Below, piece by piece: positions 1,729 to 18,712 of a stretch of DNA of 64,000 nt. The notes below the pieces were generated by a model. The model ran no database searches and was not told where the DNA came from. It saw only the letters and a list, made by a program, of their open reading frames with translations. The stretch is from Candidatus Lernaella stagnicola. GTDB taxonomy: Bacteria; Lernaellota; Lernaellaia; Lernaellales; Lernaellaceae. How positions within the stretch are numbered: position 1 is the first letter of the stretch; each line of letters starts with the position of its first letter. Made by a program: the position numbers and the translations under genes. The stretch covers positions 244,710-308,709 of the forward strand of contig JAVCCK010000034.1 of assembly GCA_030765525.1 (NCBI GenBank), given 5' to 3'.

Positions 1729-3430
1729 GCCAACCGGGGAAGAATCGACGGAACCACAACTCGAGACACGCCTTCGTGTAACGGCTGCGATCGAATTCGC
1801 CTCGGGGCGTCGGCGGCGGGATGTCCAAGCCGCGGCTTTCCAGCGACCCGATCAGTTCGTTCGCCCACGTCTTGAGCGGACCGTTCAGCCACCGGTCGAT
1901 GGGTACGACGAGACCTTTTTTGTCCTTGCGGTTGACGATGGAGTCCGGCACCCAACGCGTTGCGGCGCGCCGCAGGATGACCTTGGTTGTCAGGTCGTGG
2001 ATTTTAAGGTGCGGCGGCAGGCGGAACGCGAATTCGACAATGCGATGATCGAGGAAGGGGCAACGATTCTCCAGGCCGAACGCGGCCGCGGCGCGGTCGT
2101 TCATCTGGATCAGGCTCGGCAGCGAGATGTGCAGGTCTGTCAAGCCGAGGCAGTCCGGCAGGCTGCGGCCCGCCTGGAAGAAAGCGCGAATGCGGTCAAT
2201 GTGCGCGGTCGGGTCGGCGACCTGCGCGCGATGAATCAAGTGGAAATAGCGGCCGACCACGTCACCGAACATGTCGTGCCGCCAAAAGAAACGGGCCAGG
2301 GGATGGTACGCTTTGAGTTCGGTGCGGCGGCCCAGTTCGTGCTCGACTTGCATCAGCAAGTAACGCACGTACCCGGCGAATATTTCATCGGCGCCTTGGC
2401 CGCCCAACACGACCGTCACGTGGTTCGCCGCGGTGCGTGCCAGCGCGAACTCGCTGATCGTCGAGGCCGTGGCGATCGGCTGGTCCAGGTGCCAGATGAT
2501 GTTTTCAAGTTCCGTCTGCAAATCTTCGGGTTTGGGCGTGACGACGTGCTGCGCGGCGCCAATGTGGTCCGCCATCGTCTTCGCGTGCTCGAACTCGTCG
2601 AATGCTACGCCAAGAGGAAAGCGACAACTGAAAACCTGGCTCGGGCGCGCCACCGCCGCCATGATGCTGGAATCCAAGCCGCCGGATAGAAACAACCCCA
2701 CCGGCACGTCGGCGACCATGCGAATGCGAACGGCATCCTCGATTAATGCGGCGAGTTCTTCCACCAGTTCGTCGTCACTCCGGTCGTCGTCGCCGTCGGG
2801 GCGCGGCGATTCCCAATAGCTCTCGATCGTCACTTCATGACCGTCGTAGGTCAGCGTGCGCCCGTGGCCCAATTCGCACACGCCCTCGAAAATCGTGTCG
2901 GGGGCAAGCGGAGCGTCAAACACCCAGAATGCCTCCGTGATGCGCGGCGCCGATTCGATTTGGGTCAGCAGCGCTTTGATTTCGCTGGCGACGTAAAAAC
3001 CGTGTTCGTTATGGGCCCAGTAGAACGGCTTTTCACCGAGGCGGTCGCGGGCGCAGAAAAAACGCTCGCCGTCGTAAATCACAAAGGCGAATTGTCCATT
3101 GAAGCGCGTGACGCAGTCTTTGCCCCATTTGCGGTAGGCGTTGAGAATGACCTCGGTGTCGGTTTGGGTTCGAAACTCGTATTCACTCTCCAGTTCGGCG
3201 CGCAGCTCCTTGTAATTGAATACTTCGCCGTTGTAGACGATGACGAATTTGCCGTCCGGACTCTGAATCGGCTGCGTACCGGTGACCAGGTCGATAACTT
3301 TCAGCCGCCGGCTGCCCAGTTGCACGGGGCCGTCGCGATAGAATCCCTCTTCATCGGGGCCACGGTGCGCGAGCATCCGCGTCATCGGCTCGATGTCGCC
3401 TCGTCCCCATATCGCTGCGATGCCGCACAT
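1721..3430 (-). CDS. asnB: asparagine synthetase (glutamine-hydrolysing)-like amidotransferase
   Basis: Mature N-terminus MCGIAAIWG with Cys2 nucleophile (class II GATase), plus the synthetase PP-loop LFLSGGLDSS. The start at 3430 forms an ATGA overlap with the upstream GT2 stop. The longer ORF extension to 3736 is rejected. Confidence 0.85.
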   Translation of the reverse strand: MCGIAAIWGRGDIEPMTRMLAHRGPDEEGFYRDGPVQLGSRRLKVIDLVTGTQPIQSPDGKFVIVYNGEVFNYKELRAELESEYEFRTQTDTEVILNAYRKWGKDCVTRFNGQFAFVIYDGERFFCARDRLGEKPFYWAHNEHGFYVASEIKALLTQIESAPRITEAFWVFDAPLAPDTIFEGVCELGHGRTLTYDGHEVTIESYWESPRPDGDDDRSDDELVEELAALIEDAVRIRMVADVPVGLFLSGGLDSSIMAAVARPSQVFSCRFPLGVAFDEFEHAKTMADHIGAAQHVVTPKPEDLQTELENIIWHLDQPIATASTISEFALARTAANHVTVVLGGQGADEIFAGYVRYLLMQVEHELGRRTELKAYHPLARFFWRHDMFGDVVGRYFHLIHRAQVADPTAHIDRIRAFFQAGRSLPDCLGLTDLHISLPSLIQMNDRAAAAFGLENRCPFLDHRIVEFAFRLPPHLKIHDLTTKVILRRAATRWVPDSIVNRKDKKGLVVPIDRWLNGPLKTWANELIGSLESRGLDIPPPTPRGEFDRSRYTKACLELWFRRFFPGWHA

Positions 3431-4307: not shown

Positions 4308-5963
4308 TTGACCCCAAAGCCGCCCTCGCGCATCCTTTTCGCCATGGCACCAAAGGACGACACGGCGTCGCGTCACGCACGTTGGCTCATGATTGTGATC
4401 GTGGCCGCGGCCGGGCTTATCTTCGCGCCCAATCTTGCCGACTCGTTCGTCAGCGACGATTTCGTGAAGATGCACACCTTGGGAAACGACACGCTCGGGC
4501 ACATTCTCAACGGCGACAACCTTGGTGGCACGGCCGATTATCGCCCCCTGACTTTGGCGATGATTTGGCTGGAACTTCACGCTTTCGGCGCTCACCCAAT
4601 GGCTTTTCACGCTGTCCACTTGATTCTTGGCATGCTCGCCGCCGTGCTTCTCTTCCTGCTCGTCGAAGCCTGTTTCGATCGCCGCGTCGCCCTACTTGCG
4701 GCGCTCGCGTTCGCCGTCGCTCCGGCCCACGTAGAAAACGTCGTCTGGATTTCCGGCGTCGGACAAGTGCCGGCCACGGCGTTGTTGTTGGGCGGCCTGT
4801 GGATACACGTTTGGGCGCGACGCACGGAACGCGACGTGGTGGCGCCGTTGGGCGCGCTGGCTTTTTTCGCGGCCCTGTTCGCCCACGAGGTCGTTTGTCT
4901 CGCGCCGCTGATCCTCTTGCTTATCGATCGCCACCTGACCCCCCGTCCGACGTGGCGCGCCTCCCTTTCCGCAGCAGGCATTTGGCTGGCCGCTTTGGCG
5001 ATATGGGCATTGATCCGCGCCGTCGTTGTCGGTTTCGCGTTACCGTCGCACTACGGCCTGTTCGTCCTTCGAGACGTCGCTCGTTACCTGCAACTCTATT
5101 TTTTGCCGCTGGGTCTGGATGACGCCATCCCGTGGGTAATGACGCACCCGTGGGCGGTGTTGGGACCGGCGGTTGTCGTGCTGGGCGCCATCGTGTTTTT
5201 CGCCGCGCGGCTATGGCGCATCCCGGCGTTTCGTTGCGGCGCGATCGCGGGTTTGCTGGCGTTGGCGCCGGTGGCGCATCTTTATCCGCGACGCCTACAC
5301 ATTTTCGCGGCGAGCGCCTGGTGGGCCGTGGCCGTGGGCGGTTTGGTTGCGGCGGGACTCAACGACCGGCGGCCGCTACTGCGCAAAGTGGCGTACCTCG
5401 GGTTCGGTGCGTGGCTCGCATTGTGTCTCGGCGTGGCCGCGGGACAATCCATGCTCTGGCGTGAGGCAGCCGACTTGGCCGCTACGGTCGTGGATGATCT
5501 GGACAAAGCCGCCGACCCGCCGACCACCGACATCATCGTACTTACCGTACCCGACACGTTGCGCGGTGCCTTTGTCATGCGCAACGGTTTGCATCAGGCG
5601 CTGCGCTTGCGTCGACCGAATACAGCCGTGGTCGTACACCACGTACTGCTGGCGGGCTTGGCCGCGTCGGATGCGCCCGGTCCGGTGTGTCGCCGTACGG
5701 GGCAGGCGGGTTTCGAGGTCCGGCAGCCACCGGGTTCGGTTCACAATTACTTGCTGCCGCCCGATGCGAACCGCGACCTGCAGCCGGGGATGGATCGACG
5801 CCTCGGCCCGTTTTACTATCAGGCCGTCGCCGCGTCGCGGCCCTTCGGTCTGACGGCGGTGGCGGTCGGCGTCGATCCGCAACTTCTCGACAAGCCCGGC
5901 GCGAAGATTATGGTATTCGATCACGGACGGCTGGCGCCCTTCGACGGAGGAAACAGTCCTTGA
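4308..5963 (+). CDS. polytopic membrane glycosyltransferase, GT-C fold (PMT/ArnT-like), start uncertain
   Basis: About 12 predicted TM helices. An acidic DD motif (FVSDDF) sits in the first extracytoplasmic loop, as in GT39/GT83 enzymes. Divergent from the polyprenyl-P-sugar synthase gene. The true start may be an internal ATG (4344 or 4389). Confidence 0.55.
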   Translation: MTPKPPSRILFAMAPKDDTASRHARWLMIVIVAAAGLIFAPNLADSFVSDDFVKMHTLGNDTLGHILNGDNLGGTADYRPLTLAMIWLELHAFGAHPMAFHAVHLILGMLAAVLLFLLVEACFDRRVALLAALAFAVAPAHVENVVWISGVGQVPATALLLGGLWIHVWARRTERDVVAPLGALAFFAALFAHEVVCLAPLILLLIDRHLTPRPTWRASLSAAGIWLAALAIWALIRAVVVGFALPSHYGLFVLRDVARYLQLYFLPLGLDDAIPWVMTHPWAVLGPAVVVLGAIVFFAARLWRIPAFRCGAIAGLLALAPVAHLYPRRLHIFAASAWWAVAVGGLVAAGLNDRRPLLRKVAYLGFGAWLALCLGVAAGQSMLWREAADLAATVVDDLDKAADPPTTDIIVLTVPDTLRGAFVMRNGLHQALRLRRPNTAVVVHHVLLAGLAASDAPGPVCRRTGQAGFEVRQPPGSVHNYLLPPDANRDLQPGMDRRLGPFYYQAVAASRPFGLTAVAVGVDPQLLDKPGAKIMVFDHGRLAPFDGGNSP

Positions 5964-7744
5964 AACGACTTTGGCTCCAATTCCTTGTTGCCGCATTGCT
6001 GTTACCTTGGCCGTTTTATTTGTTTTTCGGTTACAGCGACATCGCCGACTTGGCCCCCGGGAACACCGAAGCGCTGATCATGGTTAACGATCCCGTGGAT
6101 TGGGTGGACCGCGCCGCGAATTCGGAACTGGCCCTTCAACTGGAAAATCACGAAACCGGAAAAGCGCTGAAACCGGCGTTCGATCTGTGGCGCAAATCCC
6201 GCGAAAAGGATTGGCTGTTCACCGGGCTGCGGCACTTCGTGCGCCGCGTCTACATCGCGTTCCCGCACGATCGCACACCCAACTTGCAACAACCCGAGAT
6301 CATGACCTTCTACGTCGATTTGGGCTTTGCCGGGCGCGTCGCCTCCGACCTGATGAACTTCGGCGTCGGCTTTCTCAAAGGGCAGGCTGTGACGCACCAC
6401 GGTCGGCCCGTCATCGTGCAACCGCCGATGGCGTACGCCTTTCTGGATAACTATTTCGTGGCCGGATCGGCGGACAACGTGATGGCAAGCGTCGCCACGA
6501 TGGCCGGGGTCGAGTCCGGCGTCGATGCCGCTGGAAAGCGCTTGGCGCGGGCGCGGCGCAACGCACCGGACGCCGACATCGTGTTCTACGTACTATCGCG
6601 AACGCCGTTTCGGGTTCCGTCGAAGCCGACCGGAAAAATCGACGCCCGCACTTTCGTCAACGCCACCGGCATCGACTATGCGGTCGGCGGGCTGGACATC
6701 GAAAACGGGCGGTGGCGGGCCGAATTCGAAATCGTCGCCGTACCGGGAAAAATCGTCAGCCCCTATACGCAGAGAACCGGCGATCCTTTCGCGACGCTCA
6801 GTCTCCCGGATAGCGGCACGGTCGGGTATGCGGCGCTTCGCATAAATCGCGCCTCGGAACTGGCGCCGGTCATGATCGGCATATTCGACAGCGAGGGTCG
6901 ACTCACGAAGCTGCGGCGCCAACTGCTTTCGCTCGCGCTGCAAAGTCTGCTCGACCACGCCGGGCACGAACTTGCGATCGTGTTTTCCGAAGAGAAAATG
7001 CTAAGCGAGCCGGTGTATGTTTTCCTCGTCGAAGATCCCGCCGAAATGACGTCCATGCTTGAGAAACTGTCCAAAACCGCCAATGAACAGGCCGCGGCGT
7101 TGCAGGCTCCCGTCGGTACAGACGGCCAAAGCGTCGGCGAAAAGCTCGCGGAAGTGGCCGACTCCGCACAACTCAACTCCCTGCTGCAACAGTTACCGGC
7201 CGGGGTTCGCGAAAAAGTCGCGGCCGTCGCGGACCAGGTAACCGGAGGCGCGGATCTACAACGCCTGCTGACCGACACTCAACACCTCACGCTGGGAACG
7301 ACCAGCCTCTTTTGGCGCATCTCGGACAACCGCTTGGTGCTGTCGCAATCGCGAACTCTGGCCGACCGTTACCACCGCAACCTGGAAAGCGGGCGACCGC
7401 CTGATGAATTTGCCCGCGCCGCGGATTTCGTGCCGCAAGACGGACCTCTCGTCGCGTGGATCAACCTGGTGCCGCTGCTGGACAAGAGCGCCGGTGACTT
7501 GAGCCATCCGCTCGCGTGGCTATCGGCCAAACGGCCGCGCCTGGCTGTCGGGGCGGTGGAGACCGGCGCCGGCGTCAAATTCCTGGCCGACCTGAATATG
7601 GACATCGGCCTTGGCGAATCGCGCGACGCGAACGCGATGTGGATTCTTTTGTTCTGGCTACTTGGGGGCCTCGTCGTCCTGGGCGGCGTGGTGGGCGGCC
7701 TCATCGTGGTGCGCGGCGTCTTGGCGATCGCGCGTCGCGGCTAA
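5960..7744 (+). CDS. hypothetical membrane-anchored exported protein
   Basis: TTG start at 5960 preceded by GGAGG (5946-5950). TTGA overlap with the GT-C stop. N-terminal hydrophobic anchor LWLQFLVAALLLPWPFYLFF and a C-terminal TM helix with a Gly-rich tail. The 5687 in-frame extension is rejected. Confidence 0.5.
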   Translation: MKRLWLQFLVAALLLPWPFYLFFGYSDIADLAPGNTEALIMVNDPVDWVDRAANSELALQLENHETGKALKPAFDLWRKSREKDWLFTGLRHFVRRVYIAFPHDRTPNLQQPEIMTFYVDLGFAGRVASDLMNFGVGFLKGQAVTHHGRPVIVQPPMAYAFLDNYFVAGSADNVMASVATMAGVESGVDAAGKRLARARRNAPDADIVFYVLSRTPFRVPSKPTGKIDARTFVNATGIDYAVGGLDIENGRWRAEFEIVAVPGKIVSPYTQRTGDPFATLSLPDSGTVGYAALRINRASELAPVMIGIFDSEGRLTKLRRQLLSLALQSLLDHAGHELAIVFSEEKMLSEPVYVFLVEDPAEMTSMLEKLSKTANEQAAALQAPVGTDGQSVGEKLAEVADSAQLNSLLQQLPAGVREKVAAVADQVTGGADLQRLLTDTQHLTLGTTSLFWRISDNRLVLSQSRTLADRYHRNLESGRPPDEFARAADFVPQDGPLVAWINLVPLLDKSAGDLSHPLAWLSAKRPRLAVGAVETGAGVKFLADLNMDIGLGESRDANAMWILLFWLLGGLVVLGGVVGGLIVVRGVLAIARRG

Positions 7745-7748: not shown

Positions 7749-8252
7749 CTAACGTTCGGCGAGTGTGGCGATCATCGTCGCTAACGCCGCACCGTCTTCA
7801 TCGTCGATCCAACTGGCCACGATCACCGTCGTGCGCTCGTCCTCTTGCCACGCGAACGCCACCATACGTCGGCCGCCCCGGTGTCCGGAACAAGTCATTG
7901 CTTCGTGGCCGGCGACCGTCGTCGCGTTGACGCCGGTGGGAGTCGCGACGCCCCGCATACGCGCCAAGCCTACGACAAGGTCTTCTAAAGGCCGACGGTA
8001 CTCGGTGCCGGTCACGAGGCGCAAATCGGCACGGCCGCGGGCGCGGCGGGGACCGATCCACACACGGTTGCCCGGCAGCGTCGGCTTGGCCGCCCAGTTC
8101 ACGGGTATCGAGATGCGCATGCCGAAGTCGGGAAGGTCGACGCGACGCAATTCCAAATCGGAGGCCGGTGGTAGTAGCGCCGGTTGCGGCGTACGCCCCG
8201 CACACCCAACCACGGCGAGCAGGAGCCATAGCGCCCAGAGCCGTCGCATCAC
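7749..8252 (-). CDS. hypothetical lipoprotein
   Basis: Signal peptide plus lipobox LLAVVGC. Overlaps the upstream lipoprotein gene by 4 bp. Confidence 0.55.
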   Translation of the reverse strand: MMRRLWALWLLLAVVGCAGRTPQPALLPPASDLELRRVDLPDFGMRISIPVNWAAKPTLPGNRVWIGPRRARGRADLRLVTGTEYRRPLEDLVVGLARMRGVATPTGVNATTVAGHEAMTCSGHRGGRRMVAFAWQEDERTTVIVASWIDDEDGAALATMIATLAER

Positions 8253-8734
8253 GGGCTCCCGGTAAAGCGCACGCGAGCGAAAATGAAGTCCATCAATTCC
8301 TGGTCCGCCGCGTCGTCGGCCAACATCACCATCACGTACACGCCGTTATCGTGGTCGATGACGAAGGCCGTGGCGGTCATGCCATGTTTTGTTTTCCGGA
8401 GGCCCAGGGCCGGCCGTTCATCGACAATGCCCTGTAGCGCCGCGGCGTCTTGGTATTTGCGGTCCTTGAGAATCTCTTCATACACTTGGCGCGCGGAAAT
8501 CGCTTGAGGGTTGACGTAGACGACGATGCGGCTGTCGCCTGACTCCTCTTGGATGTGCAGCGAACGAACCGGTTCGTTGCGCCATTGCACAGTCCAACCT
8601 TCGGGCACGGGGATCTGCATCCGCAAGGTTTTATCGGTGTGGGTTTTCAACGTCGCACCGCCTGGGCCGACCATCTTTGCCGTCGCGCACGCCGTGAGAA
8701 AAACGAGTAAAATCATCACCAAACGAAAACGCAT
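8249..8734 (-). CDS. hypothetical lipoprotein
   Basis: Signal peptide plus lipobox VFLTAC. Divergent from the giant TPR gene. Confidence 0.55.
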   Translation of the reverse strand: MRFRLVMILLVFLTACATAKMVGPGGATLKTHTDKTLRMQIPVPEGWTVQWRNEPVRSLHIQEESGDSRIVVYVNPQAISARQVYEEILKDRKYQDAAALQGIVDERPALGLRKTKHGMTATAFVIDHDNGVYVMVMLADDAADQELMDFIFARVRFTGSP

Positions 8735-8806: not shown

Positions 8807-8836
8807 TTGACGAATCGCGCGTGGTCTCGCTATGGT
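8807..8836 (+). promoter_or_regulatory. candidate sigma70-type promoter (TTGACG-N18-TATGGT) for the giant pentapeptide/TPR gene
   Basis: Hexamer pair read directly from the sequence. The flanking motif CGCTATGGTRSCA occurs twice (8759-8781 and 8828-8850). Confidence 0.3.
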
Positions 8837-8940
8837 GCCAGCACGTGGCGTAAAAGGTGCATCAAGCGGGATACGCGTGTAACAGTACTGAGGCGAAGAA
8901 AAAGACAAGAAGCCGTACCGAGCCAAAGAGGGAATCGTCC

Positions 8941-11900
8941 ATGACCGAAATCGCTGAGAGAACGACGCTCGACCAGCAGTTGCGAGACGGGTCGATCACC
9001 AGCGTGCAATATCGCGAGAAACTGGCGGCGATCCTGCCCGACCCGCCGCCCCGCGAAGGACGCCCAAACTTCGCCGACGTGCAGGACGAATTGACCACCG
9101 GCAAGCTGGCGCGTGGCGATTTCGCGCGCGTTAATTGGCGGAAAAAGGACCTGAGTGGTGCGAGACTGGCCGGCGTCGATTTCACGAAAGCCAAACTCGG
9201 CCGCTGCAATTTGCGTGAGGCAGACCTAGCCGGGGCGCTTCTCAGTGGAACCGATTTGTCGGGCGCGGATCTGTCTGGAGCCGTGCTGCTGGGTGCGGAC
9301 CTTTCCGGCGCGAACTTGAAAGATGCCGACCTCACGGGCGCGGTGCTCGATCGTGCCGATGCGAAAAACGTTGGCGCTTCGGGTGCGAAGTGGATCGGTG
9401 TGAGCGCTATCGGTACGGATTTCACGTTCGCCGATATGCCGCGCGCCGAGGTAGAGAACGCCGATTTCCGCGAGGCGGATTTCACCGACGCCAATTTCGC
9501 CGACGCCAAACTGACCGGCGTCAATTGGAACGGCGCGACCCTCACTCGTACGACGCTGCAGAATTCGCAAATCGAACGGTTTTCGGCCGTTGGCGCAAGC
9601 GCCGAGCGGATCAACCTGAACCTCGCGGCGGTGACCGACGCCGATTTCACCGACGCCGAACTGGTCAAAGGTGATATCTCCAATGCCTTCCTGGAACGGG
9701 TGTCGTTCAAAAACGCCAAACTGACCGGCGCCATCTTCAACGTCAGCGAGCATCGCGAAGTGACTCTCGAGGGCGCCGATTTGACCGGGGCGTCGCTCAA
9801 ATCCATGGTCGGCTATTCGGAAGAGGAGTTGGCGGCATTGGCCGAGCGCGGCGCGAAGGTGGACAAGTTTCTGCTGCGCCGATTTCTGCGTTTGTTGTGG
9901 CGCAGTCGCGCGGCGCAAGCCGTCGCGGCGTTGCTGCTGATTGCCGCGGGCGTCGGCATCCACTGGTACATCAACAATCCCGTGCATTGGAGCTACGCCA
10001 AGCTCGAGCGCGTCGCGCAGGAACGACGGGGCAACGCCGATTTCGCGGGCGCCGAGGAACTGTACCGTGTCATGCTGTCCAACTTCAGCGAGCAGGCTTC
10101 GAAGGTGGCGGCGGCCCGCAACGCGTTGGCCCGCTTGCTGATTGAAACCAAGCGCTTCGAGGAATCCGAAAACCTGTTCAACAGCGTGATTGCCGATTTT
10201 CCCGATCAGACGGGCGCGGTACTCGGCGCGGAAATCGGCATTGCCGACATTCTGCGCGAGCAGAAGCAATACGAAGCGTGCGAACATAGGCTTCTGGCCA
10301 CCACCGACAAATTCGCCGAACACCCGCAGGTGATCGACGCCTGGGACCGCCTCGCGCAACTGGCCAAGCTGCAGGGACGACCGGATCGCGCGCGGGAGAT
10401 TTACGAGCAGGTCATCGGGCAAACCGCCCTAGACGAAAATACGATCGTGCGCGCCCAATTCGAGCTCGCGCAAATGCTGCACGACAACAAGGATTACGAC
10501 GGCGCGATTACCAAGTACCGCGAAATCGCGCAGCGCTTCCAGGACGACCGCGCCGGGGCCGCGGCGCTATCCTCCATTATCCAGATCGAGGTGGAACGGC
10601 AGGAACTCCAGGCCGCGGCCTTGGTGCTCGAGGAGTTAAAGCGCAAATATCCCGAGGAAACCGACAGCGTGCTGGACGGCGAAATCTTCTACGGCAGCGC
10701 CATGTTGAACGACAGCAATTTCGAGCGGGAAGGGCTGCGTCGCCTCCAGAAAATTTTTGAACAGAACCCGACAACAGACAAGGGATATTGGTCCGGCAAG
10801 GGAATCGCCGAATACTACAAGCGCGTCGAAAAGTACGAGCAGGCTCTGCAAATCCTTGCCAAGTTGCAGGAAAACTTCTCCGGCAACGTGCGTCATCGTA
10901 TCGAAATTATCGCCGCCTTTGCCGAGATTGACCTGCTGCGAGGACAGCCGGAACAGGCGCTGGAACGATTGCAGGCCGTCACCGATTTGTTGGCGGAGCC
11001 GGGGCAGGCGCGTATCGTACTGGATTTGCAGGCGCGGGCCTTGGCCGCGTCCGGCCAGGTGAAACGAGCGCAGATCACCTTCCGTCGTCTCGCCGAATTG
11101 TTCCCCGAAGATGTCGGTACGCGCTTTCAGGCTTTGATCGGCGAGGCGAGGTTGCTCGCCACCGCGGGCGAAACCGAGCAGGCCGTCGTCCTCTATCGCC
11201 AAGCGGCCGATTTGGCCGATCAGCCGCTGTCGGAATTCGATGCGCTGCAAAACATCGCCGCATTGCGCCGCGAGGTTGGAAATTGGGATGCCGAAGAACG
11301 CGAACTGCGCGCCATGGAAAAGCGTTTCGCCGAGACGCCAATCGTCACGGCGCAGGTGATGCTTCTGTTGGCGGAAAATCAACGCCGCGTCGGGAAAGCC
11401 GACAAAGCCTTGGAACTGCTGCGTCGCGTGGCGGAAATGGAAGTGCCGAACCGGCCGGTCGAGGCGTTGCAGGCAATGCTGCAAATTTACTCGCGGCAGG
11501 GCGATGCGGACCGGGTGGCCGAGGTGGGAGCGGAAATCCAAAAGCGCTTTCCGCAAGATCGCCGCGCCGGGCTGACCGCTCGCATTGAAGCGGCAAACCT
11601 GCTGGTGCGGCAAGGGAAAAACGACGAAGCGAAGCGCGAATACGAAGCCATTGCCGCCGCCGGCGAGTCCAATTTTCGCCGTCAGGCTCTGCTCGCGTTG
11701 CTGCAATTGCATGTGGACCGTGGTGAGACGCAAGACGCCGAACGCTTCTACGAAACCATCAAACAGGAATTCCCCGCCAAGTTAGACGACATCGCCAACG
11801 CGACGCTTGTCTACGCGCAACTGTTGCGCAAGAGCGGGCGCGGTGCCGAGGCCGAGGTGCTTTACGACAAGTTGATTGCCGAGAATGCCGGCCAGATCCA

Positions 11901-14900
11901 CGGCCTGTGGGCGTTGGCGGGGCTCGCGCAATTCCATCTCGAACAGAATCGCACGACTGAAGCCGCGGCCGCCTACCGGCGCATGCTGGAAGATCCGGCG
12001 GCGAAAAAGCACCCAGAGGAAGCCATGCGCGCCCGCCAGGGATTGGGGATGATTGCGGAAACGGCGCGCGATCATGACGGCGCCGTCACCGAATACCGCA
12101 AAGCGCTCGACCTCGCCGAATCCGACGACGACAAAATCGGCATCGAGCAAGCCATCGTGCGCGCCTTGGCCGAGCAGGGCAACGTGGACGAAGCCGAAGC
12201 CCTCATCACCCAAATGAAGCAGCGCGACTCCCAGCAAGTCGGGATGATCGAAGCTGCGCAAATGAACATTCTGGGCGCTCTGGCGCGGGATGGGCGTATT
12301 GAGGAAGCCCTCACCGGATACGAGCGCATTGCCGCAGAAACGGACGATGATAACAACAAGGCCGCCGCGCTCAATTCCATCGCGCAAATCCAACTGAGCC
12401 GGGGACGGCTGCGCGAGGCCGAAACCGCGTACGGTCGCTTACGGCGTGAGTTCGCCGACGACCCCCTGCAACTGCGCGCAGCGGACCTCGGTCTGGCCGG
12501 TCTTTTCCGGCAGCGCGGCGATTTCAAACGGGCGCTTACCGCTTACCGGAAAGTCGTTGATCGCTACGATGACTCGGCGACTCGGCGTCAGGGCTTGGCG
12601 GCCATCGCCGGTCTCTACGCCGAAATGGGCGAGTTGGACAAGGCTCGCGAAACCTATCAGGCGTTGTTGGACAATGCGGGCGAATCGGCCTCGGCCCAGG
12701 CTACGGCGATGATGGGCTTGGCGGACTTGCAGGCGCGGGGCGGCGAGGTCGACAAGGCCATGGAGGGCTACCGGCAGGTGCTGGATCTCGCGGTCGAAGA
12801 TACGCTGAAAATCGGCGCGTATCATGCGCTGGCGCAGCTCTACATGCAGCAGGGGCTTTTCACCCAGGCGCGGGAGATCTACGAGGAACTGGGTCAACGA
12901 TTCCCGCAAAACGCCGAGCATCTCGTCGCGGCGCGTTTCGGCGAGGCCGAGACTTTGCGTCAAAACGGCCAGTACGAAAAGGCGGCGGCGATCTACAACG
13001 AATTGCGCGACGGTTCGGCCAACCCGGCCGTTAAGACACGGGCTCGCATATCCATCGGCCGCGCTTATCTCGACCAACAGAAATTTGCCGAGGCCCGGCA
13101 GGCTTTCGCGGAAGTCGTCGAGGACAATCTCGCTCCGGCGCTGCAAAAACTCGAAGCCCGCACCGCCTTGGCGGACCTGTTGCGTCGAGCGGGCGAGATG
13201 GACGCAGCGGCCGACGCCTACGAAAAAATCGTCGCGGAAACCAGTGACGAAAACGTCAAGCAAGGTGCGAGGCAGGCCATCGCCGGCATTCGCCTGGAAC
13301 AAAACCGTCTGGACGAGGCCGAGAAAATATTCCGCGCGATGTCCAAAGCGCCGGGCGGCGCGGCACGTACCGCCGGCGGAATGATGGGGCTGGCCGATGT
13401 CGCGATGCGACGGGGCGAATATGAAAAGGCGCGCGGTTTCTATCGGCGGGTTCGGCAGGCGGCGGTTGACGTCCAAAGCGATTTGAACGCGTTGACGGCC
13501 ATCGCGCAGTCTTACACGGCCGAGAAGAAATTCGCGCGGGCCGAAGCCGCGTACGACGAGATTCTGGAAAAACACGGCAGCAACGCCCAGGCCAAGATCG
13601 ACGCACAACTCGCCAAAGCGAACCTCTTGCGGGATCGCGGCGACGTCGAAGAAGCTCTCGGTGCGTACCGGGAAATCGCCGACACATACGGCAACGCCAA
13701 CCAGGTTTATTGGGCATTGTCCGGCATCGCCCAAATCGAAGGACAACGCGGAAGCGTCGACTTGGCGCAACAAGCGTATGACGAAATCGCGCGCCGCTTT
13801 CCCGAAAATGCCGCAGGCCTAGCCGATGCAAAACTGAACCAAGCCAACATGTTCAAGGCCACCGGGCGACGAACCGAAGCCGAAAAAGAGTTCCGGGAAA
13901 TCATCGAAACCTACCCGGGGTCGCGGCAGACCGCGGCGGCCGTCGAGGGCTTGGCGCAGATCGGCATCGAATACCAGGACTACGACCAGGCGCTTCAGAA
14001 TTTCCAGAAGTTGTTGGAGGATTTCAGTTCCGATCCGTCGGTCACCACGCGCGCCCGTCTGGGGCTCGCCAATGTGGCGCGGCAGCAAGGTGAAACCGAT
14101 AAAGCCGTCGCCGAGTTCGAAAAAGTCGCCGGCGAAGCCAAGCGGCCCGACGACCAAGTTCAAGCCCTCGTGTTTCTCGCGCAGACGCTCCAGGAGACCG
14201 GCCGCAATCAGGAAGCCGAGGCGGTGTTCGACCGTCTGATGAACCAGTATTCCGACCGCCCATGGGCGCGATCGGAAGCCAATATGGGTCGTGGCAACCT
14301 CCGAATGACGCAAGGTCGCTTCCAAGAAGCTGCCGATTTGTTCAAGAAAGTCGCCGAAGAGTTCCGCCGGAAGCCGATGGCGGGCGGGGCGTTGCAGGCG
14401 TGGGCGAGCGCCGAGATCGCCGCGGGCAACATCGAGGGCGTCGAAACCATCATCACGCGGATCGAAAACGAACACGGCGACGACCCCAACGCGGCCATCA
14501 ACGTGCACATGAACGTGGCCAATAAGTTGATCGCCGAAAAGCAGTTCGCTGCCGCCGACCAACGTCTCGCGCGCGTGCTGGAACGATACAAGGGATTGCC
14601 GCAAACCGCGTGGGTCAGACACGCGCAGGCTCAAAGTGCGTTGGCGCAGCGACGTTTCGGCCGCGCCACTGAAATCTACCGCGAAATCAAAGAAGAGTTC
14701 AGCGGCAACCTCGTGGCAGTGATCGATGCCGAGCTCGGCGAAGCGGATTTGTTGCACGGCCAGGGGGAAACGGATCGGGCTCTCGAAATCTACGAGCGTG
14801 TCGCCAACCGCTATCGCGATTACAGCCAGGCGGTCCGCGGTCTGCAGGCCATGGCCGACATTTACGGGGAGCGCGGTCGCACCTACGAGCAGGAACAGGC

Positions 14901-15216
14901 GTACCAACGCATCGTTAACGAACACCCGGGCGATCGTGAGACCTTGCTCAACGCCCGCCTCGCGCTGGGGAACCTGTACCGCACGCGAAACCTGACGACC
15001 AAGGCCCTCGAGCAGTATAAGGCGATCTACGAAAACCACCCCTCGGCCGACCAAGCCGCATGGGCCAAAGGCGCGGCGGCTCGCTTGTACTACCAGATCG
15101 GCGAAGAAAAAGTGGCCGTTGGTTTGATCGAGGAAGTGATCAACGGATTCCCCGAGGATCACGAAGCGGTTTCGGGCGCCAAGCAATTTCTGGAAGAAAT
15201 TTACAAACGGAATTAA
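8941..15216 (+). CDS. giant (2091 aa) pentapeptide-repeat / transmembrane / TPR-repeat protein
   Basis: ATG at 8941 with an AGAGGGAA RBS. Residues about 60-300 are tandem pentapeptide repeats (A[DN]LxG/ADFT[DN]A). One TM helix AALLLIAAGVGIHWYI at about 10000. About 1750 aa of continuous TPR/Sel1-like repeats follow (recurring YxxAxxxYxxLxxxxP, EAxxL motifs). Confidence 0.85.
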   Translation: MTEIAERTTLDQQLRDGSITSVQYREKLAAILPDPPPREGRPNFADVQDELTTGKLARGDFARVNWRKKDLSGARLAGVDFTKAKLGRCNLREADLAGALLSGTDLSGADLSGAVLLGADLSGANLKDADLTGAVLDRADAKNVGASGAKWIGVSAIGTDFTFADMPRAEVENADFREADFTDANFADAKLTGVNWNGATLTRTTLQNSQIERFSAVGASAERINLNLAAVTDADFTDAELVKGDISNAFLERVSFKNAKLTGAIFNVSEHREVTLEGADLTGASLKSMVGYSEEELAALAERGAKVDKFLLRRFLRLLWRSRAAQAVAALLLIAAGVGIHWYINNPVHWSYAKLERVAQERRGNADFAGAEELYRVMLSNFSEQASKVAAARNALARLLIETKRFEESENLFNSVIADFPDQTGAVLGAEIGIADILREQKQYEACEHRLLATTDKFAEHPQVIDAWDRLAQLAKLQGRPDRAREIYEQVIGQTALDENTIVRAQFELAQMLHDNKDYDGAITKYREIAQRFQDDRAGAAALSSIIQIEVERQELQAAALVLEELKRKYPEETDSVLDGEIFYGSAMLNDSNFEREGLRRLQKIFEQNPTTDKGYWSGKGIAEYYKRVEKYEQALQILAKLQENFSGNVRHRIEIIAAFAEIDLLRGQPEQALERLQAVTDLLAEPGQARIVLDLQARALAASGQVKRAQITFRRLAELFPEDVGTRFQALIGEARLLATAGETEQAVVLYRQAADLADQPLSEFDALQNIAALRREVGNWDAEERELRAMEKRFAETPIVTAQVMLLLAENQRRVGKADKALELLRRVAEMEVPNRPVEALQAMLQIYSRQGDADRVAEVGAEIQKRFPQDRRAGLTARIEAANLLVRQGKNDEAKREYEAIAAAGESNFRRQALLALLQLHVDRGETQDAERFYETIKQEFPAKLDDIANATLVYAQLLRKSGRGAEAEVLYDKLIAENAGQIHGLWALAGLAQFHLEQNRTTEAAAAYRRMLEDPAAKKHPEEAMRARQGLGMIAETARDHDGAVTEYRKALDLAESDDDKIGIEQAIVRALAEQGNVDEAEALITQMKQRDSQQVGMIEAAQMNILGALARDGRIEEALTGYERIAAETDDDNNKAAALNSIAQIQLSRGRLREAETAYGRLRREFADDPLQLRAADLGLAGLFRQRGDFKRALTAYRKVVDRYDDSATRRQGLAAIAGLYAEMGELDKARETYQALLDNAGESASAQATAMMGLADLQARGGEVDKAMEGYRQVLDLAVEDTLKIGAYHALAQLYMQQGLFTQAREIYEELGQRFPQNAEHLVAARFGEAETLRQNGQYEKAAAIYNELRDGSANPAVKTRARISIGRAYLDQQKFAEARQAFAEVVEDNLAPALQKLEARTALADLLRRAGEMDAAADAYEKIVAETSDENVKQGARQAIAGIRLEQNRLDEAEKIFRAMSKAPGGAARTAGGMMGLADVAMRRGEYEKARGFYRRVRQAAVDVQSDLNALTAIAQSYTAEKKFARAEAAYDEILEKHGSNAQAKIDAQLAKANLLRDRGDVEEALGAYREIADTYGNANQVYWALSGIAQIEGQRGSVDLAQQAYDEIARRFPENAAGLADAKLNQANMFKATGRRTEAEKEFREIIETYPGSRQTAAAVEGLAQIGIEYQDYDQALQNFQKLLEDFSSDPSVTTRARLGLANVARQQGETDKAVAEFEKVAGEAKRPDDQVQALVFLAQTLQETGRNQEAEAVFDRLMNQYSDRPWARSEANMGRGNLRMTQGRFQEAADLFKKVAEEFRRKPMAGGALQAWASAEIAAGNIEGVETIITRIENEHGDDPNAAINVHMNVANKLIAEKQFAAADQRLARVLERYKGLPQTAWVRHAQAQSALAQRRFGRATEIYREIKEEFSGNLVAVIDAELGEADLLHGQGETDRALEIYERVANRYRDYSQAVRGLQAMADIYGERGRTYEQEQAYQRIVNEHPGDRETLLNARLALGNLYRTRNLTTKALEQYKAIYENHPSADQAAWAKGAAARLYYQIGEEKVAVGLIEEVINGFPEDHEAVSGAKQFLEEIYKRN

Positions 15217-15234
15217 TTGCGTAAAACCGATGCT

Positions 15235-16839
15235 ATGGACATTGCCGCGTATGCGGCCGGGTTGGTCGCCGCCCTGCCGGTGGCGCTGGTGTTCGACGAC
15301 CTGTTCGGCCTGCGCCTGATTCCCGACGCCGGCAATGCGGTGCTCCTCAACCTTCTCGCCGTCTCTCTCGTTTTGCTCACCCTGCGATTCGAGCCGCGCC
15401 GACTGGCCAAGGTCTTCACCGCAAACGAAACGAAACTCAGGCGTCGTCTGGTCATCGAACTATCGCCGCTTCTCATCCTGTTTCTCTTCCGCGGCAGTTG
15501 GGACATCGACTCCGGCGCACTCGCGCTCGTTGCGTTGCTGACCGTCGGCCTGCGCGCCGTCTCCGTGTGGTCGCTGCGCGGGACGGAAAAGATGCCGTCT
15601 TGGTACGCCGGCTTCTTATGGCTGCCGACGCTGGCGCTGGCCGGCGTGTACGGCGGTAATCTCGGCGGCTTCTGGCTCGCGCCGGCGCTGGTGATGATCC
15701 TCATCGGTGGCCTGTTTCTGCGCGATTTCCGCCGATTGGCGGCAACCGAAGGCATTGCCGCGCTACCCGGCCTTCTCGGCTTGCTTGCCTTCGCGGTCAC
15801 CGGCAACCGCTGGGCGGGCGTGGCGGGAGTGACGGCGTGGGGCCTGGGGCGTTTGTGGGCCTACTCCCGTTGGCTCCGTCGCCGCGGTTATGGGCTGGTG
15901 ATGTTGGCCGCGGCATTGATCGCGTTTTGGATGATCGACGGATCGCTGCGCCGTTCGCCGTGGGCCGATGCGTTGACCTCGCGGCATCTATCGGCCGACG
16001 TGCAGGTGCACGACGCGCTGTTCTGGATTCACAAAGACGTGTTTCGCGGCGACATCGATTTCGGCGTGGCCCGCGTCAAGATCCGTGGCCGCGAAGTTCC
16101 GAAGAAAAAGACTGCGGACATCACGCGCGTGATTTGCTGCGGCGGCTCCACGACCTTCGGCGTCAAGTTGCCGCCGGAGAAGGTGTGGGTGACCCTGGCC
16201 GAAAAGCGCCTGCACGATAGCGGGCGGCGCATCGAACTGCTCAACGCCGGGGAACCGGGCTACACCGCGTTTCAGATTCACTTGCTGCTCAAGCATTTTC
16301 TCGTGCCTGACTACGATCCCGACGGCGTCATCCTGTACATTGGCTACAACGACAGCCAATTGACCCGCGGCCCTTACACCGAGCGAGAACTTTACGCCAT
16401 GTGGCAGGCTTACCGCGTCGGGCGGGGGACGTGGCGGATGCGGCTAGGGAATTTCCTCCAGCGCTCGCGGCTGTACAACCTTTACGCCCATACGCTAACC
16501 GGCGCGCGCCGCCGTTGGAGCCCGGAGAAGGTGCCGATTTCCACGCCGCCGGAATTCGCCCGCACGCTCGACGAACTTTTATCCTACCTGGAAGACGCGC
16601 AGATTCGCGTTTTGGTCGCCGCCGAAGCGCATCAAAACGACGAAGTGATCTATCGCCGCATCATGAAACGCCTGGCGAGACAACATCACGCGGGCTTCGT
16701 GGACGTGTACGACCTCGTGCGACGGCGCAACGCGCCGGGTGAGATCCATACCGATGTCGTTCATCTCACACCGCGCGGCAACGAGATCGTGGCCGATATC
16801 ATCGCCGATGCGTGGCAAAACATGGAGATTGGACCATGA
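15235..16839 (+). CDS. polytopic membrane protein with C-terminal SGNH/GDSL-type hydrolase domain
   Basis: N-terminal about 230 aa holds multiple TM helices. The C-terminal domain has SGNH blocks: CCGGSTTFG (block I), NAGEPG (II), GYNDSQ (III), DVVHLTPRG (V, Asp-x-x-His). An alternative TTG start at 15217 lies immediately after the upstream stop. Confidence 0.7.
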   Translation: MDIAAYAAGLVAALPVALVFDDLFGLRLIPDAGNAVLLNLLAVSLVLLTLRFEPRRLAKVFTANETKLRRRLVIELSPLLILFLFRGSWDIDSGALALVALLTVGLRAVSVWSLRGTEKMPSWYAGFLWLPTLALAGVYGGNLGGFWLAPALVMILIGGLFLRDFRRLAATEGIAALPGLLGLLAFAVTGNRWAGVAGVTAWGLGRLWAYSRWLRRRGYGLVMLAAALIAFWMIDGSLRRSPWADALTSRHLSADVQVHDALFWIHKDVFRGDIDFGVARVKIRGREVPKKKTADITRVICCGGSTTFGVKLPPEKVWVTLAEKRLHDSGRRIELLNAGEPGYTAFQIHLLLKHFLVPDYDPDGVILYIGYNDSQLTRGPYTERELYAMWQAYRVGRGTWRMRLGNFLQRSRLYNLYAHTLTGARRRWSPEKVPISTPPEFARTLDELLSYLEDAQIRVLVAAEAHQNDEVIYRRIMKRLARQHHAGFVDVYDLVRRRNAPGEIHTDVVHLTPRGNEIVADIIADAWQNMEIGP

Positions 16840-18149
16840 AGCGCCGGTGGCTTGTTCGACTCGCGTACGGCGCGATCCTCGGCCTGCTGGCGGTCGGCGC
16901 GGCGAGCCCACGGTTGGCGTCGCCCGGCCGCGTCAAACAAGCGATGGAGGCGGCCATCTACGAATCCGACGACCGCCGCGCCTCGCGACTGCTGCCGCTG
17001 TTTATCGACGCTTTCGAGTACACGCCGCTCGAACTGACTCGCCTCGGACAACGCCTGGGGGCGTTGAACGAACCGGCTGTCGTGGAGCAGTACGCGGCCT
17101 TGGTGGAGGAAAGCGTTGCGCCGACGGACCCGATCCGAGCGACCGCGCTGCTGTGGCGTGCCGAGGCCGCGGTCATGGGCAGGCGTCCGCGTGAAGCCCG
17201 GCGTTTGTACGAGGAGGTCTTGGAGAAGTATTGGGATCATCCGCAGGCGTTGGAGGCGCAGAGCGCGCTGAGGCGACTTGTCGGGCGCGACGCCGCGGCC
17301 CGCATTACCCAAGCCGCACTCGACGGCCAATGGGAGAGGGTGGTCGATCTGGCCGCTGAAATCGACGCCACGACTCTTTTCCCGGAGGATCGCGATTTGA
17401 TCGCCGCCCACTTGCTCGAGGCATACCTGGCGACCGCACGGTTGGATGCGGCGGTAGAAAAACTGCGTCGTTGGGCCGCAGCGGACTCGGGCTACAATAT
17501 TCCGTCGATTCTTATGCCGTCACGATTAGCCCCCTACGAGGCGAGCCGGGGCGTCGTGGGCCGCGCCCGCGACAACTTGACCGACGAGCGCTGGCGGATC
17601 GAGATGAGCGGCCTTGAGGCCGCGCTGGGCGACCGATGGCAACAGGTGCGGACACTACTGCCCGCCATGGACAGCCAAATGGCGTTGAACCTCGTCGAAT
17701 ACGGCCTGCGCCAAGCGATCGACGATGTTGCCGCGGAAGGCTTGCTGGAAGCCCTGCCACGCGAGCGGTTTTCCGATGTCGAAAAACTGCACGGTCACTT
17801 TCTCGCGGCGAACTTTTGGTTCTCGCGCGGCAACGTACCGCGGGCCGATGCGGCGATACGCGCCGGTCTCGATTTGCAGCTCGACGAGCCGGAATTCGGG
17901 CATTTGCAGCTTCTGCGGCTTGAACTGGATGACGTGGATCCGGGCGTCGCGCTTAAGCGCTATGGCGAGTTGGCCCGTCGATGGACCGCTCACGAACGTC
18001 TGTTGCTGGAGATTCTGCGCTTCGGTCAAAAGCGTTTGGCCGCTGCCGGGCGGCGGGGCGAGGCGTGTCGATTAGGCCGCGAGTATGCCGAGGCGCTATT
18101 ATCTGCGGGCCACCGTCAAGGCGTGTTGGAGTTCTGCGATTCTCCCTGA
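16836..18149 (+). CDS. hypothetical secreted protein (helical/TPR-like)
   Basis: ATGA overlap with the upstream SGNH gene. Signal peptide LAYGAILGLLAVGAASP. Rest is Ala/Leu-rich helical repeat content. Confidence 0.5.
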   Translation: MKRRWLVRLAYGAILGLLAVGAASPRLASPGRVKQAMEAAIYESDDRRASRLLPLFIDAFEYTPLELTRLGQRLGALNEPAVVEQYAALVEESVAPTDPIRATALLWRAEAAVMGRRPREARRLYEEVLEKYWDHPQALEAQSALRRLVGRDAAARITQAALDGQWERVVDLAAEIDATTLFPEDRDLIAAHLLEAYLATARLDAAVEKLRRWAAADSGYNIPSILMPSRLAPYEASRGVVGRARDNLTDERWRIEMSGLEAALGDRWQQVRTLLPAMDSQMALNLVEYGLRQAIDDVAAEGLLEALPRERFSDVEKLHGHFLAANFWFSRGNVPRADAAIRAGLDLQLDEPEFGHLQLLRLELDDVDPGVALKRYGELARRWTAHERLLLEILRFGQKRLAAAGRRGEACRLGREYAEALLSAGHRQGVLEFCDSP

Positions 18150-18463
18150 TCGGGGTCCTGTCCGTCGGTATCCTCAATTTGTTCACGGACGTGCTGCAAA
18201 AACATGCGAGGCAGCGCGAATGCCACAATGAAGGTCGAGGTTACTGCCAGCACCAAGGATGTGTACCAGCAAGGCTGCGATATGTTGTTGTAATTACGAA
18301 ACAAAAAGGCGCACGCGGCGAGTACGCCCACCAATCCCGGATTGATTGAAAACACGATCAACATGAAGGGGTTTTGCCGGATCGCCCGAAAACGGAGCAA
18401 TATCGCCAGAAAGATGATTGCCGAGGCCAGGATGCCGATTCCGATCCAGTCCTGCTGCTCCAT
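18116..18463 (-). CDS. small hypothetical membrane protein (3 TM)
   Basis: GGGAG RBS 7 nt upstream of the ATG and three hydrophobic helices. Sits in a locally lower-GC patch. The 3' end overlaps the convergent gene by about 34 bp, so it is uncertain. Confidence 0.35.
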   Translation of the reverse strand: MEQQDWIGIGILASAIIFLAILLRFRAIRQNPFMLIVFSINPGLVGVLAACAFLFRNYNNISQPCWYTSLVLAVTSTFIVAFALPRMFLQHVREQIEDTDGQDPDQGESQNSNTP

Positions 18464-18672: not shown

Positions 18673-18712
18673 CCAGCGCTCTTGAGTGTTACGTGCGAAA
18701 AGGAACTACACG

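Follow-up and report, generated by a model that had tools for sequence, protein, structure and literature searches.

Background

Candidatus Lernaella stagnicola belongs to the uncultured phylum Lernaellota (FEN-1099). The paper that named this phylum, the only genomic description found, covers metabolism and makes no mention of tetratricopeptide repeat (TPR) or pentapeptide proteins or of the gene cluster considered here (PMC9324843). Here we present an analysis of a stretch of 64,000 nucleotides (nt) of this genome (assembly GCA_030765525.1, contig JAVCCK010000034.1, positions 244,710 to 308,709), referred to as the window, in whose numbering coordinates are given unless another locus is named. 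Its subject is a cluster of genes around a giant protein of 2091 amino acids (aa), in which a pentapeptide-repeat (PRP) domain is joined through a single transmembrane (TM) helix to a long array of TPRs. A first-pass annotation of the sequence had placed this protein in a three-gene operon with a membrane-bound SGNH protein and a secreted helical protein, and had suggested an envelope assembly or modification machine. Our tentative reading is that the giant may act as a scaffold on which an envelope glycan is modified, which would be the first concrete hypothesis on cell-envelope construction in Lernaellota.

Results

Domain structure of the giant protein

The giant protein is 100% identical to an NCBI entry named 'tetratricopeptide repeat protein [Candidatus Lernaella stagnicola]', and public annotations of its family say no more than that or 'pentapeptide repeat-containing protein'. 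The earlier description of a 2091-aa product with about 240 aa of pentapeptide repeats and a single TM helix is borne out. Running in unbroken register from residue 54 to residue 288 (nt 9100-9804), 47 A(D/N)LXX repeats, corresponding to about 12 beta-helix coils, match Pfam Pentapeptide (PF00805) at E 1.8e-36 (123.7 bits against a cut-off of 20.2). They are followed by one uncharged hydrophobic TM helix at about residues 323-343 (nt 9907-9969), whose hydrophobicity is borderline (1.67).

From residue 356 to residue 2080 (nt 10006-15180) the protein consists of 23 units of 75 aa, each a pair of TPRs of 37 and 38 residues. The array thus holds 46 TPRs in 1725 residues and ends 11 residues before the C-terminus. 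Autocorrelation of the giant under BLOSUM scoring peaks at lags 75, 150, 225 and onward, with a lag-75 value of 0.29 compared to -0.73 +/- 0.05 in shuffles (z = 20), and a plain 75-residue layout keeps its register through to the C-terminus. A hidden Markov model (HMM) built from units 18-23 alone recovers 23/23 units at a spacing of 74-77 aa in the window protein and in four orthologues; the 75-aa repeat HMM has no match in the third gene of the operon or in the other cluster proteins. TPR_14, TPR_19, TPR_16 and TPR_12 all match at E 1e-64 to 1e-71, placing the array in the TPR superfamily, and the repeat type is YbgF/TPR_6/TPR_16. No Sel1 family is among the Pfam matches listed for the giant. 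Of the roughly 1750 aa of unbroken TPR/Sel1-like repeats proposed at first, the unbroken TPR part therefore stands, as 23 x 75 aa, and the Sel1 part gives way to a YbgF-type double unit. Units inside one giant are only about 13% identical to one another, which indicates that the array is ancient and not the product of a recent amplification.

Membrane topology

Which side of the membrane carries the TPR array had been left for topology prediction to decide. No signal peptide precedes the roughly 320 N-terminal residues of the giant. In the window protein, lysine and arginine account for 7 of the 20 residues before the TM helix and for 2 of the 20 after it. The same bias is seen in all 11 family members examined (4-7 before, 1-4 after), with more acidic residues after the helix. 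Under the positive-inside rule the PRP domain faces the cytoplasm and the TPR array lies on the periplasmic side, which makes the giant a predicted bitopic inner-membrane protein. The segments flanking the helix (about residues 305-365 in the window protein, nt 9880-10050) carry family-wide signatures, GAKVDxFxLRRFxRLLxR before it and NNPxNWSYxKL(E/D)RVAQE after it, which are kept even in a 1605-aa relative with a different gene neighbourhood.

The array has a fixed length and its units have individual identities

Word-indexed and exhaustive searches together yielded 17 cluster representatives (2040-2094 aa, 21-100% identity), which stem from JGI, ENA, NCBI and Logan assemblies. Loci were sorted into three tiers: tier 1 comprises the orthologous loci, including L002, L003, L005 and L007; tier 2 comprises L018 and L023; and tier 3 is L021. 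The L002, L003 and L007 orthologues align in tblastn as single high-scoring segment pairs of about 2090 residues. Four orthologues at 45-63% identity fill 2094 alignment columns with three one-residue indels, and their corresponding units are likewise 45-63% identical between proteins, compared to the 13% or so between units of the same protein. In most of the 17 representatives the array differs from that of the window by indels of 1-3 residues only; the two most distant show two 38-residue gaps, at an identity where the alignment is uncertain. Relatives of 2047-2063 aa are shorter at the N-terminus only, from which some 40 residues are missing; in them the TM helix falls at about residue 285-290, and the array covers about 1725 residues as before, in multiples of 75. 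The segment that they lack is SHOCT-like (aa 1-45 of the window protein, nt 8941-9075). This motif is present in tier 1, where the first 40 residues of the L003 orthologue match Pfam SHOCT at E 1.8e-6 (28 bits against a cut-off of 27), the window copy not being significant.

The array thus keeps to 23 x 75 aa over a range of identity that reaches from 100% to about 22%. Taken together, the alignments show that its length is fixed and that each unit has a conserved identity of its own. Repeat proteins normally gain and lose units freely. That 23 units are kept while the sequence drifts to about 22% points to strong selection, acting on a physical dimension or else on as many distinct docking sites. 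The best conserved part is the TM region with units 1-3, where 42-52% of columns are invariant as compared to 13-37% in most other units, a pattern that fits the docking of membrane-embedded partners.

The first-pass annotation had allowed for an assembly chimera, in which a pentapeptide gene and a TPR gene would have been joined near 9900-10000. Colinear proteins of 2040-2094 aa from independent assemblies in all four sources, aligned end to end across the PRP-TM-TPR junction and in tier 1 as single tblastn segments, rule out such a join, and its probability is negligible. The motifs flanking the TM helix are conserved, and base composition is even over 6-21 kb of the window and smooth at the junction. 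The borderline hydrophobicity of the TM segment is the sole remark on the other side, and no support for an artefact was found. A giant split into 916 and 1179 aa in L005, considered as a natural two-gene form, turned out to reflect an N-gap in the scaffold.

A second length class of about 1371-1387 aa has its TM helix near residue 290 and about 14 units of 75 aa. In Myxococcota, proteins of about 2464-2465 aa have a pentapeptide part some 1400 aa long, and their TM helix is followed by about 1045 aa, by length roughly 14 x 75, in which the repeat HMM found only 2-4 units (members noted for the shorter class and the Myxococcota type are P0026, P0029, P0031, P0165 and P0033-P0036). The architecture, which had been called unusual, is indeed rare; it is not unique, since PRP-TM-TPR proteins of other lengths occur in Myxococcota and in other metagenome-assembled genomes. 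Across the family, array lengths look quantised rather than continuous.

Fixed length invites a mechanical explanation: the giant may be a ruler or strut of the periplasm, and its 46-TPR superhelix the functional product in its own right, a spacer of set length, held in the inner membrane, that spans or lines the periplasm. The neighbouring enzymes would then decorate it, or the layer that it contacts, and would not be organised by it. A consensus TPR superhelix has about 8 repeats per turn and a pitch of about 70 A; 46 TPRs would by this estimate extend for roughly 300-400 A, on the order of the periplasm or longer. The invariance of 23 x 75 aa over the whole range of identity, with indels of 1-3 residues in most members, and the second class of about 14 units speak for this explanation. 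Against it, the conserved sequence of each individual unit suits a platform with many binding sites better than a uniform spacer, and the C-terminus has no outer-membrane-targeting or peptidoglycan-binding domain, given that TPRs reach to within 11 residues of the end. On balance we regard a ruler or strut, the main rival of the scaffold reading, as improbable, at something like one chance in a handful. The same standing is given to its extension to the family, in which PRP-TM-(75-aa TPR pair)n proteins would be a new class of envelope rulers, anchored in the inner membrane and of quantised length (23 units here, about 14 in the second class and in Myxococcota), whose unit number sets an envelope dimension, perhaps how far from the inner membrane a glycan layer is assembled or modified. 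The PRP domain would couple this dimension to precursor synthesis in the cytoplasm.

Gene set and chromosomal setting

The genes that accompany the giant are listed in Table 1. The operon had been delimited at 8941-18149; the conserved set is larger, and the functional unit, as predicted from synteny and gene content, is about 880-18463. Stop and start codons overlap at 3430, 1721-1728, 5960-5963 and 16836-16839. NCBI P9L99_15795 [Candidatus Lernaella stagnicola] is the same protein as the product of 5960-7744 (100% identity).

Table 1. Genes and promoter of the conserved unit around the giant protein
Feature	Position	Strand	Evidence
GT2b, soluble family-2 glycosyltransferase, 282 aa, closing the GT2a-AsnB-GT2b trio	880..1728	-	NCBIfam similarity below cut-off; synteny
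AsnB-type glutamine-dependent amidotransferase, 569 aa, true start ATG 3430 (MCGI)	1721..3430	-	TIGR01536, Asn_synthase, GATase_7
GT2a, polyprenyl-phosphate-sugar-synthase-like GT2, 246 aa	3430..4170	-	Pfam Glycos_transf_2
GT-C-type polytopic glycosyltransferase (putative), 551 aa, ~10 TM	4308..5963	+	TM scan, weak PMT_2, DD and YRP motifs
Bitopic DUF3352-like protein, 594 aa, TM helix at each end, ~530-aa periplasmic domain (predicted)	5960..7744	+	TM scan, orthologues
Small lipoprotein, 167 aa, lipobox VVGC	7749..8252	-	Sequence
Small lipoprotein, 161 aa, lipobox LTAC	8249..8734	-	Sequence
Predicted sigma-70-like promoter of the giant operon, TTGACG-N18-TATGGT	8807..8836	+	Promoter scan, conservation
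Giant bitopic protein, 2091 aa, PRP-TM-TPR (ATG 8941 to stop 15216)	8941..15216	+	Open reading frame, Pfam, TM scan, autocorrelation, orthologues
9-TM domain fused to (probably periplasmic) SGNH hydrolase/acyltransferase domain, 534 aa	15235..16839	+	TM scan, Lipase_GDSL_2
Secreted or N-terminally anchored helical protein, 437 aa	16836..18149	+	ATGA coupling, N-terminal signal-like helix
Small 3-TM membrane protein, 115 aa	18116..18463	-	TM scan; convergent, overlaps 3' end of operon

Downstream of the operon lie rplU, the gene of an extracytoplasmic function (ECF) sigma factor and obg, which identifies the locus as ordinary chromosome and not a mobile element. Between rpmA and obg, window 20146-22846 (-) holds the ECF sigma gene followed by two genes without a Pfam match (452 and 235 aa); L002 is arranged likewise. 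Further away, window 42765-44399 and 46874-49000 encode an M74-type murein endopeptidase-like protein with 2 LysM domains and a 708-aa protein made entirely of HEAT repeats, neither of them related to the giant operon. In a PADLOC scan the giant matched generic 'TPR' models only and the other 7 proteins had no match, so that a role in anti-phage defence finds no support.

Genes adjacent to the giant

The SGNH gene, described at first as following without a gap, starts 18 nt past the giant stop codon, or directly at it (0 nt) if TTG 15217 is the start. About 9 TM helices precede a Lipase_GDSL_2 domain whose catalytic set is intact, Ser305, Gly339, Asn372, Asp507 and His510 being invariant in 10 homologues. 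Blocks I (GxS), II (G), III (N) and V (DxxH) and the alpha/beta/alpha fold assign the domain to the SGNH/GDSL superfamily; in fold, its nearest neighbours are carbohydrate acetylesterases together with OatA, PatB and Ape1. A scan of genome contigs with the single SGNH protein gave no match, and an alignment-based scan gave two true orthologues. Planctomycetota loci with open reading frames of 378-381 aa match the SGNH part only (aa 280-530, most of them aa 283-373) and have no giant TPR neighbour; they were judged unrelated.

The third gene is coupled to the SGNH gene by an ATGA overlap of start and stop codons, as had been noted, and its product has a signal-like N-terminal helix and only a weak TPR_14 match. 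The protein is fast-evolving, with 27-36% identity in tier-1 loci and 31% over the N-terminal part in L018. The convergent 3-TM gene keeps its position and orientation in L002, L003 and L005-L008, where the orthologues are 32-48% identical, and in L021 (38%); its product has no GtrA or SMR match. In L003 (13374-17466) and L021 (11392-13651) it is followed by Redoxin (AhpC-TSA) and B12-binding radical SAM genes, which are absent at that position in the window; this pair may be a further conserved association.

On the other side of the promoter region, the two divergent genes reported at first are confirmed as lipoprotein genes by lipoboxes of the form [LVI][ASTVI][GAS]C near the N-termini of their products (LAVVGC and FLTAC). 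Neither product matches a family in the Pfam and NCBIfam scans. Orthologues occur in tier-1 loci, those of the 167-aa protein only there, and L005 has five small genes in a row on the lipoprotein strand.

The repeat type and the SGNH enzyme together bring to mind a coordinator of peptidoglycan synthesis and outer-membrane constriction in the manner of CpoB (YbgF), or an NlpI-like adaptor, with the SGNH domain as a peptidoglycan O-acetyltransferase or esterase and AsnB amidating peptidoglycan. TIGR02795 is the best NCBIfam match of the giant; its 276 bits are spread over 10 separate stretches, and the score thus sums repeat-level matches and is not of the equivalog type. Moreover, there is no tol-pal context nearby and no N-terminal CpoB coiled coil, the closest structural neighbours of the SGNH domain are carbohydrate acetylesterases rather than peptidoglycan enzymes, and the pairing of GT2 and GT-C is foreign to known peptidoglycan O-acetylation. 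We therefore hold such a coordinator to be very unlikely.

Partner enzymes and synteny

Two small family-2 glycosyltransferases (GT2) without TM helices flank the AsnB gene. GT2a matches Pfam Glycos_transf_2 at E 4e-29, and its best NCBIfam matches are the polyprenyl-phosphate sugar synthases PgfS, ArnC, PpgS and AglJ, all of them below cut-off, with 54-75 bits for PgfS, ArnC and PpgS against cut-offs of 370-529. GT2b resembles TuaG, EpsD and PglI in NCBIfam, in each case below cut-off. AsnB scores 442 bits with TIGR01536 (cut-off 267) and matches Pfam Asn_synthase and GATase_7; its N-terminal catalytic Cys, in MCGI at ATG 3430, is that of class-II (Ntn) glutamine amidotransferases and asparagine synthase B. 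The trio is coupled in the window, where the GT2a stop shares 1 nt with the AsnB start and the stop of AsnB likewise overlaps the start of GT2b. Beside GT2b, window 36-869 (+) encodes a TPR protein with sub-threshold MamA/PrsT/PilW-like matches, whose reading frame may extend past the window start.

The putative GT-C enzyme carries FVSDDF directly after TM1 and then YRPL, both in the first external loop and both invariant in comparison with the 32%-identical L018 orthologue. About 10 hydrophobic segments and a DD in this loop are the marks of the GT-C/PMT clan. Its PMT_2 match is below threshold (19.1 bits against a cut-off of 26.1, E 0.0017) and is likewise weak in the L002 and L003 orthologues; a PDB sequence search was empty, and no TPR match was found in the 551 aa. 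The gene of the 594-aa bitopic protein is joined to that of the GT-C by a TTGA start/stop overlap. Orthologues of this second protein occur in L002, L003, L007, L018 and L023, and one family member matches DUF3352 (E 2.6e-5). Considered as a polysaccharide co-polymerase (Wzz/PCP), it shows a two-TM topology and has no Wzz (PF02706) match; it belongs to no characterised family. Neither phmmer nor profile searches against PDB sequences produced a meaningful match, a word-indexed homologue search returned the protein itself only, and its single-sequence AF2 model was unusable (pLDDT 38).

The tier-1 conserved block comprises the GT-C-like protein, the 594-aa bitopic protein, the lipoproteins, the giant, the SGNH protein, the helical protein and the small membrane protein, and the gene order with its overlapping stop and start codons is kept in at least 5 orthologous loci. 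In the more distant loci the block is rearranged. L018 and L023, whose giant is 32% identical to that of the window, and L021 (23%) have a GT2 gene of about 245 aa, AsnB and a GT2 gene of about 290 aa directly upstream of the giant on the same strand. In these three loci GT2a is 47-51%, AsnB 51-55% and GT2b 35-41% identical to the window proteins, with AsnB between the same two GT2 genes and GT2b next to the giant. L018 has the order GT2a-AsnB-GT2b-giant-SGNH-helical, with the GT-C (32% identity) and bitopic genes divergent and an SGNH protein that also has 9 TM helices. In L021 the trio and the giant are accompanied by the small 3-TM gene. L023 combines trio and giant with a DUF3352-like gene; at 14271-19166, 2-7 kb from the giant, it has two HGSNAT_cat/Acyl_transf_3-like acyltransferases beside a stand-alone 348-aa GDSL protein. 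Judged by domain content, this is the classic two-part O-acetylation arrangement, replacing the 9-TM/SGNH fusion. The recurrence of the GT2/AsnB/GT2 trio and of GT-C and DUF3352-like partners at 23-32% giant identity strengthens the early suggestion of an envelope modification machine, a function that these neighbours would imply.

At the 3' side of the operon, L018 (19076-20908) and L023 (12332-14170) encode a 610-aa protein with about 11 TM helices and DDAYISHRYAENL after the first helix. The two are 51% identical to each other, no Pfam match is on record for them, and they may be a second GT-C-like enzyme.

A TPR protein paired with an SGNH enzyme is known from alginate and acetylated-cellulose systems. 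The giant could accordingly be asked to serve a synthase-dependent exopolysaccharide export apparatus of the AlgK/PelB/BcsC/PgaA kind, with the SGNH domain O-acetylating the polymer like AlgJ/AlgX or WssI. This pairing and the sub-threshold NCBIfam similarity of the giant to PrsT, PgaA and PilW-type TPRs are what commend the idea. A processive membrane synthase, in turn, is missing from the conserved set, as are a beta-barrel domain or porin gene of the outer membrane and any Wza/Wzx/Wzy. Both GT2 proteins are small and have no TM helix, and the giant is predicted to be anchored in the inner, not the outer, membrane. An export scaffold of this kind thus seems quite unlikely, if a shade less so than a CpoB-like coordinator.

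The shared promoter region

The motif CGCTATGGTRSCA occurs twice in the intergenic region between the giant and the lipoprotein genes (8760 and 8828), compared to 0.15 occurrences expected. The duplication reported at first is real in number. The second copy (8828-8840) includes the -10 hexamer of a predicted sigma-70-like promoter, and TTGAC(G/T)-N18-TAT(G/T/C)(G/C)T is found upstream of the giant in L002, L003, L005 and L007. What had been read as a repeated motif is here, by prediction, simply the -10 box of this conserved promoter. At 8760-8772, the first copy of CGCTATGGTAGCA has no counterpart in orthologous intergenic regions and no -35 partner in the promoter scan.

Discussion

A proposed scaffold for envelope glycan modification

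We favour a reading in which the giant is the inner-membrane-anchored periplasmic scaffold of an envelope glycan-modification apparatus that combines glycosylation with O-acylation, and we put its probability at roughly 0.45. What supports it is the predicted topology, the individual identity of the units, the synteny that persists through rearrangement, the intact enzyme motifs and the coupling of the genes.

In this mechanism, GT2a, AsnB and GT2b would assemble an amidated sugar, or perhaps a short glycan, on polyprenyl phosphate on the cytoplasmic side of the membrane. The lipid-linked sugar would then be flipped, with the 3-TM protein as a candidate flippase, and the TPR-less, TMTC-like GT-C would transfer the sugar to a periplasmic acceptor, which may be an envelope polymer or a protein. 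The SGNH domain would add an O-acyl group to the product or remove one. The TPR array would act in trans as a docking surface for the acceptor and the enzymes, as the fused TPR domain does in TMTC-type GT-C enzymes and as AlgK, PelB and PgaA do in exopolysaccharide systems, and the 23 individually conserved double units would be distinct docking sites. On the cytoplasmic side, the pentapeptide helix would tether or regulate the cytoplasmic enzymes.

Several points weigh against the scaffold. The functions of the cluster are all deduced from domains and gene neighbourhood, and the GT-C assignment in particular draws on topology, two short motifs and a sub-threshold PMT_2 match. A scaffold role alone does not account for exactly 23 units. 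The 9-TM domain of the SGNH protein has no Pfam, NCBIfam or PDB family match and no structural match. Its 9 TM helices place the SGNH domain outside by the positive-inside rule; AF2 instead draws aa 129-162 as one helix, giving 8 TM helices and an SGNH domain inside. In L021 the SGNH and helical genes are not adjacent to the giant. Finally, the loci of the Myxococcota 2464-aa protein, of the 1605-aa relative and of the class of about 1375 aa are without enzyme partners, which indicates that the scaffold family is not tied to the enzyme set everywhere.

The persistence of PRP-TM-TPR in distant relatives without enzyme genes would equally suit a trans-membrane regulator, whose TPR array senses envelope state or a ligand and whose PRP domain, as a DNA or protein mimic of the MfpA/Qnr type, sequesters or regulates a cytoplasmic target. 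Membrane-anchored LapB, which controls LpxC, is a broad parallel. Such a role would also agree with the length and good conservation of the cytoplasmic PRP domain, with its 12 coils, and with the SHOCT-like motif of tier 1. Set against this, the giant has no known signalling output domain, its constant partners are biosynthetic enzymes and not regulators, and the matches of its PRP domain to MfpA and Qnr fall far short of the family cut-offs. We know of no precedent for a 1725-aa sensor. A regulator strikes us as unlikely, though somewhat less so than exopolysaccharide export. These two readings and the CpoB-like one are less supported than the scaffold because the locus has neither a synthase or porin nor a tol-pal context, and the giant has no output domain.

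If the scaffold reading is correct, one membrane-spanning protein would organise cytoplasmic sugar activation, periplasmic GT-C transfer and O-acyl modification.

Comparison with known systems

All domains of the giant and its partners come from known families, no characterised relative was found and the combination is undescribed: literature searches (DUF3352, PRP+TPR+TM, AgmK+pentapeptide) gave no description of a PRP-TM-TPR protein, of a fixed 23 x 75 array or of this gene set. With MfpA, Qnr and HetL, to which its scores lie well below cut-off, the giant shares an uninterrupted A(D/N)LXX beta-helix. The pentapeptide protein HglK resembles it in two further respects, being joined to a membrane segment and having ties to genes for envelope glycolipids or glycans. 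Unlike the giant, none of the four carries a TPR array, and their gyrase or heterocyst targets have no evident link here. CpoB, a soluble protein of the periplasm, shares the YbgF/TPR_6-type units. It measures about 260 aa, with a coiled coil at the N-terminus and a single TPR domain at the C-terminus, and its gene belongs to the tol-pal operon, whereas the giant has 2091 aa, a TM anchor and no tol-pal genes around it.

Periplasmic TPRs stand next to SGNH- or CE-type esterases or acyltransferases in AlgK with AlgX/AlgJ, PelB with PelA, PgaA with PgaB, and BcsC. These are outer-membrane lipoproteins or porin fusions with 4-19 TPRs and a processive synthase alongside. The giant differs in being anchored in the inner membrane and in having a fixed 46 TPRs that run to residue 2080 of 2091, where a TPR-porin would continue into its barrel, and no synthase or porin is found in the conserved neighbourhood. 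OatA and OafA/OafB combine an AT3 domain with SGNH; the 9-TM domain in the window has no Acyl_transf_3 (PF01757) match even at E <= 1, which sets it apart from this AT3-SGNH group.

Three-component systems for periplasmic glycosylation (GtrA/GtrB/Gtr*, ArnC/ArnE-F/ArnT, CsbB/GtcA/YfhO and PpgS/Rv3779) likewise consist of a small GT2, a GT-C and a small multi-TM protein as possible flippase. Compared to them, NCBIfam scores in the window are far below equivalog cut-offs and the small protein has 3 TM helices and matches neither GtrA nor SMR; the AsnB, second GT2, SGNH, DUF3352-like and giant TPR components have no counterpart.

A parallel in mechanism is offered by TMTC1-4 and their bacterial full-length homologues, polyprenyl-phosphate-sugar-dependent GT-C enzymes with a non-cytoplasmic TPR domain, which carry a DD active-site motif (M1) and SHKSYRP (M2) in the first external loop (PMC7801869). 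The DD and YRP motifs of the window GT-C correspond to these loop motifs. It lacks the C-terminal fused TPRs of a TMTC-type O-mannosyltransferase: the array resides in a separate protein, is about 5 times longer (46 versus about 8-10 TPRs) and comes with its own TM anchor and a cytoplasmic pentapeptide domain. The PMT_2 match is below threshold, and an interaction between the GT-C and the giant would be the counterpart to the fusion. If the scaffold reading holds, a large unstudied set of bacterial TMTC-like GT-C enzymes would gain a testable partner.

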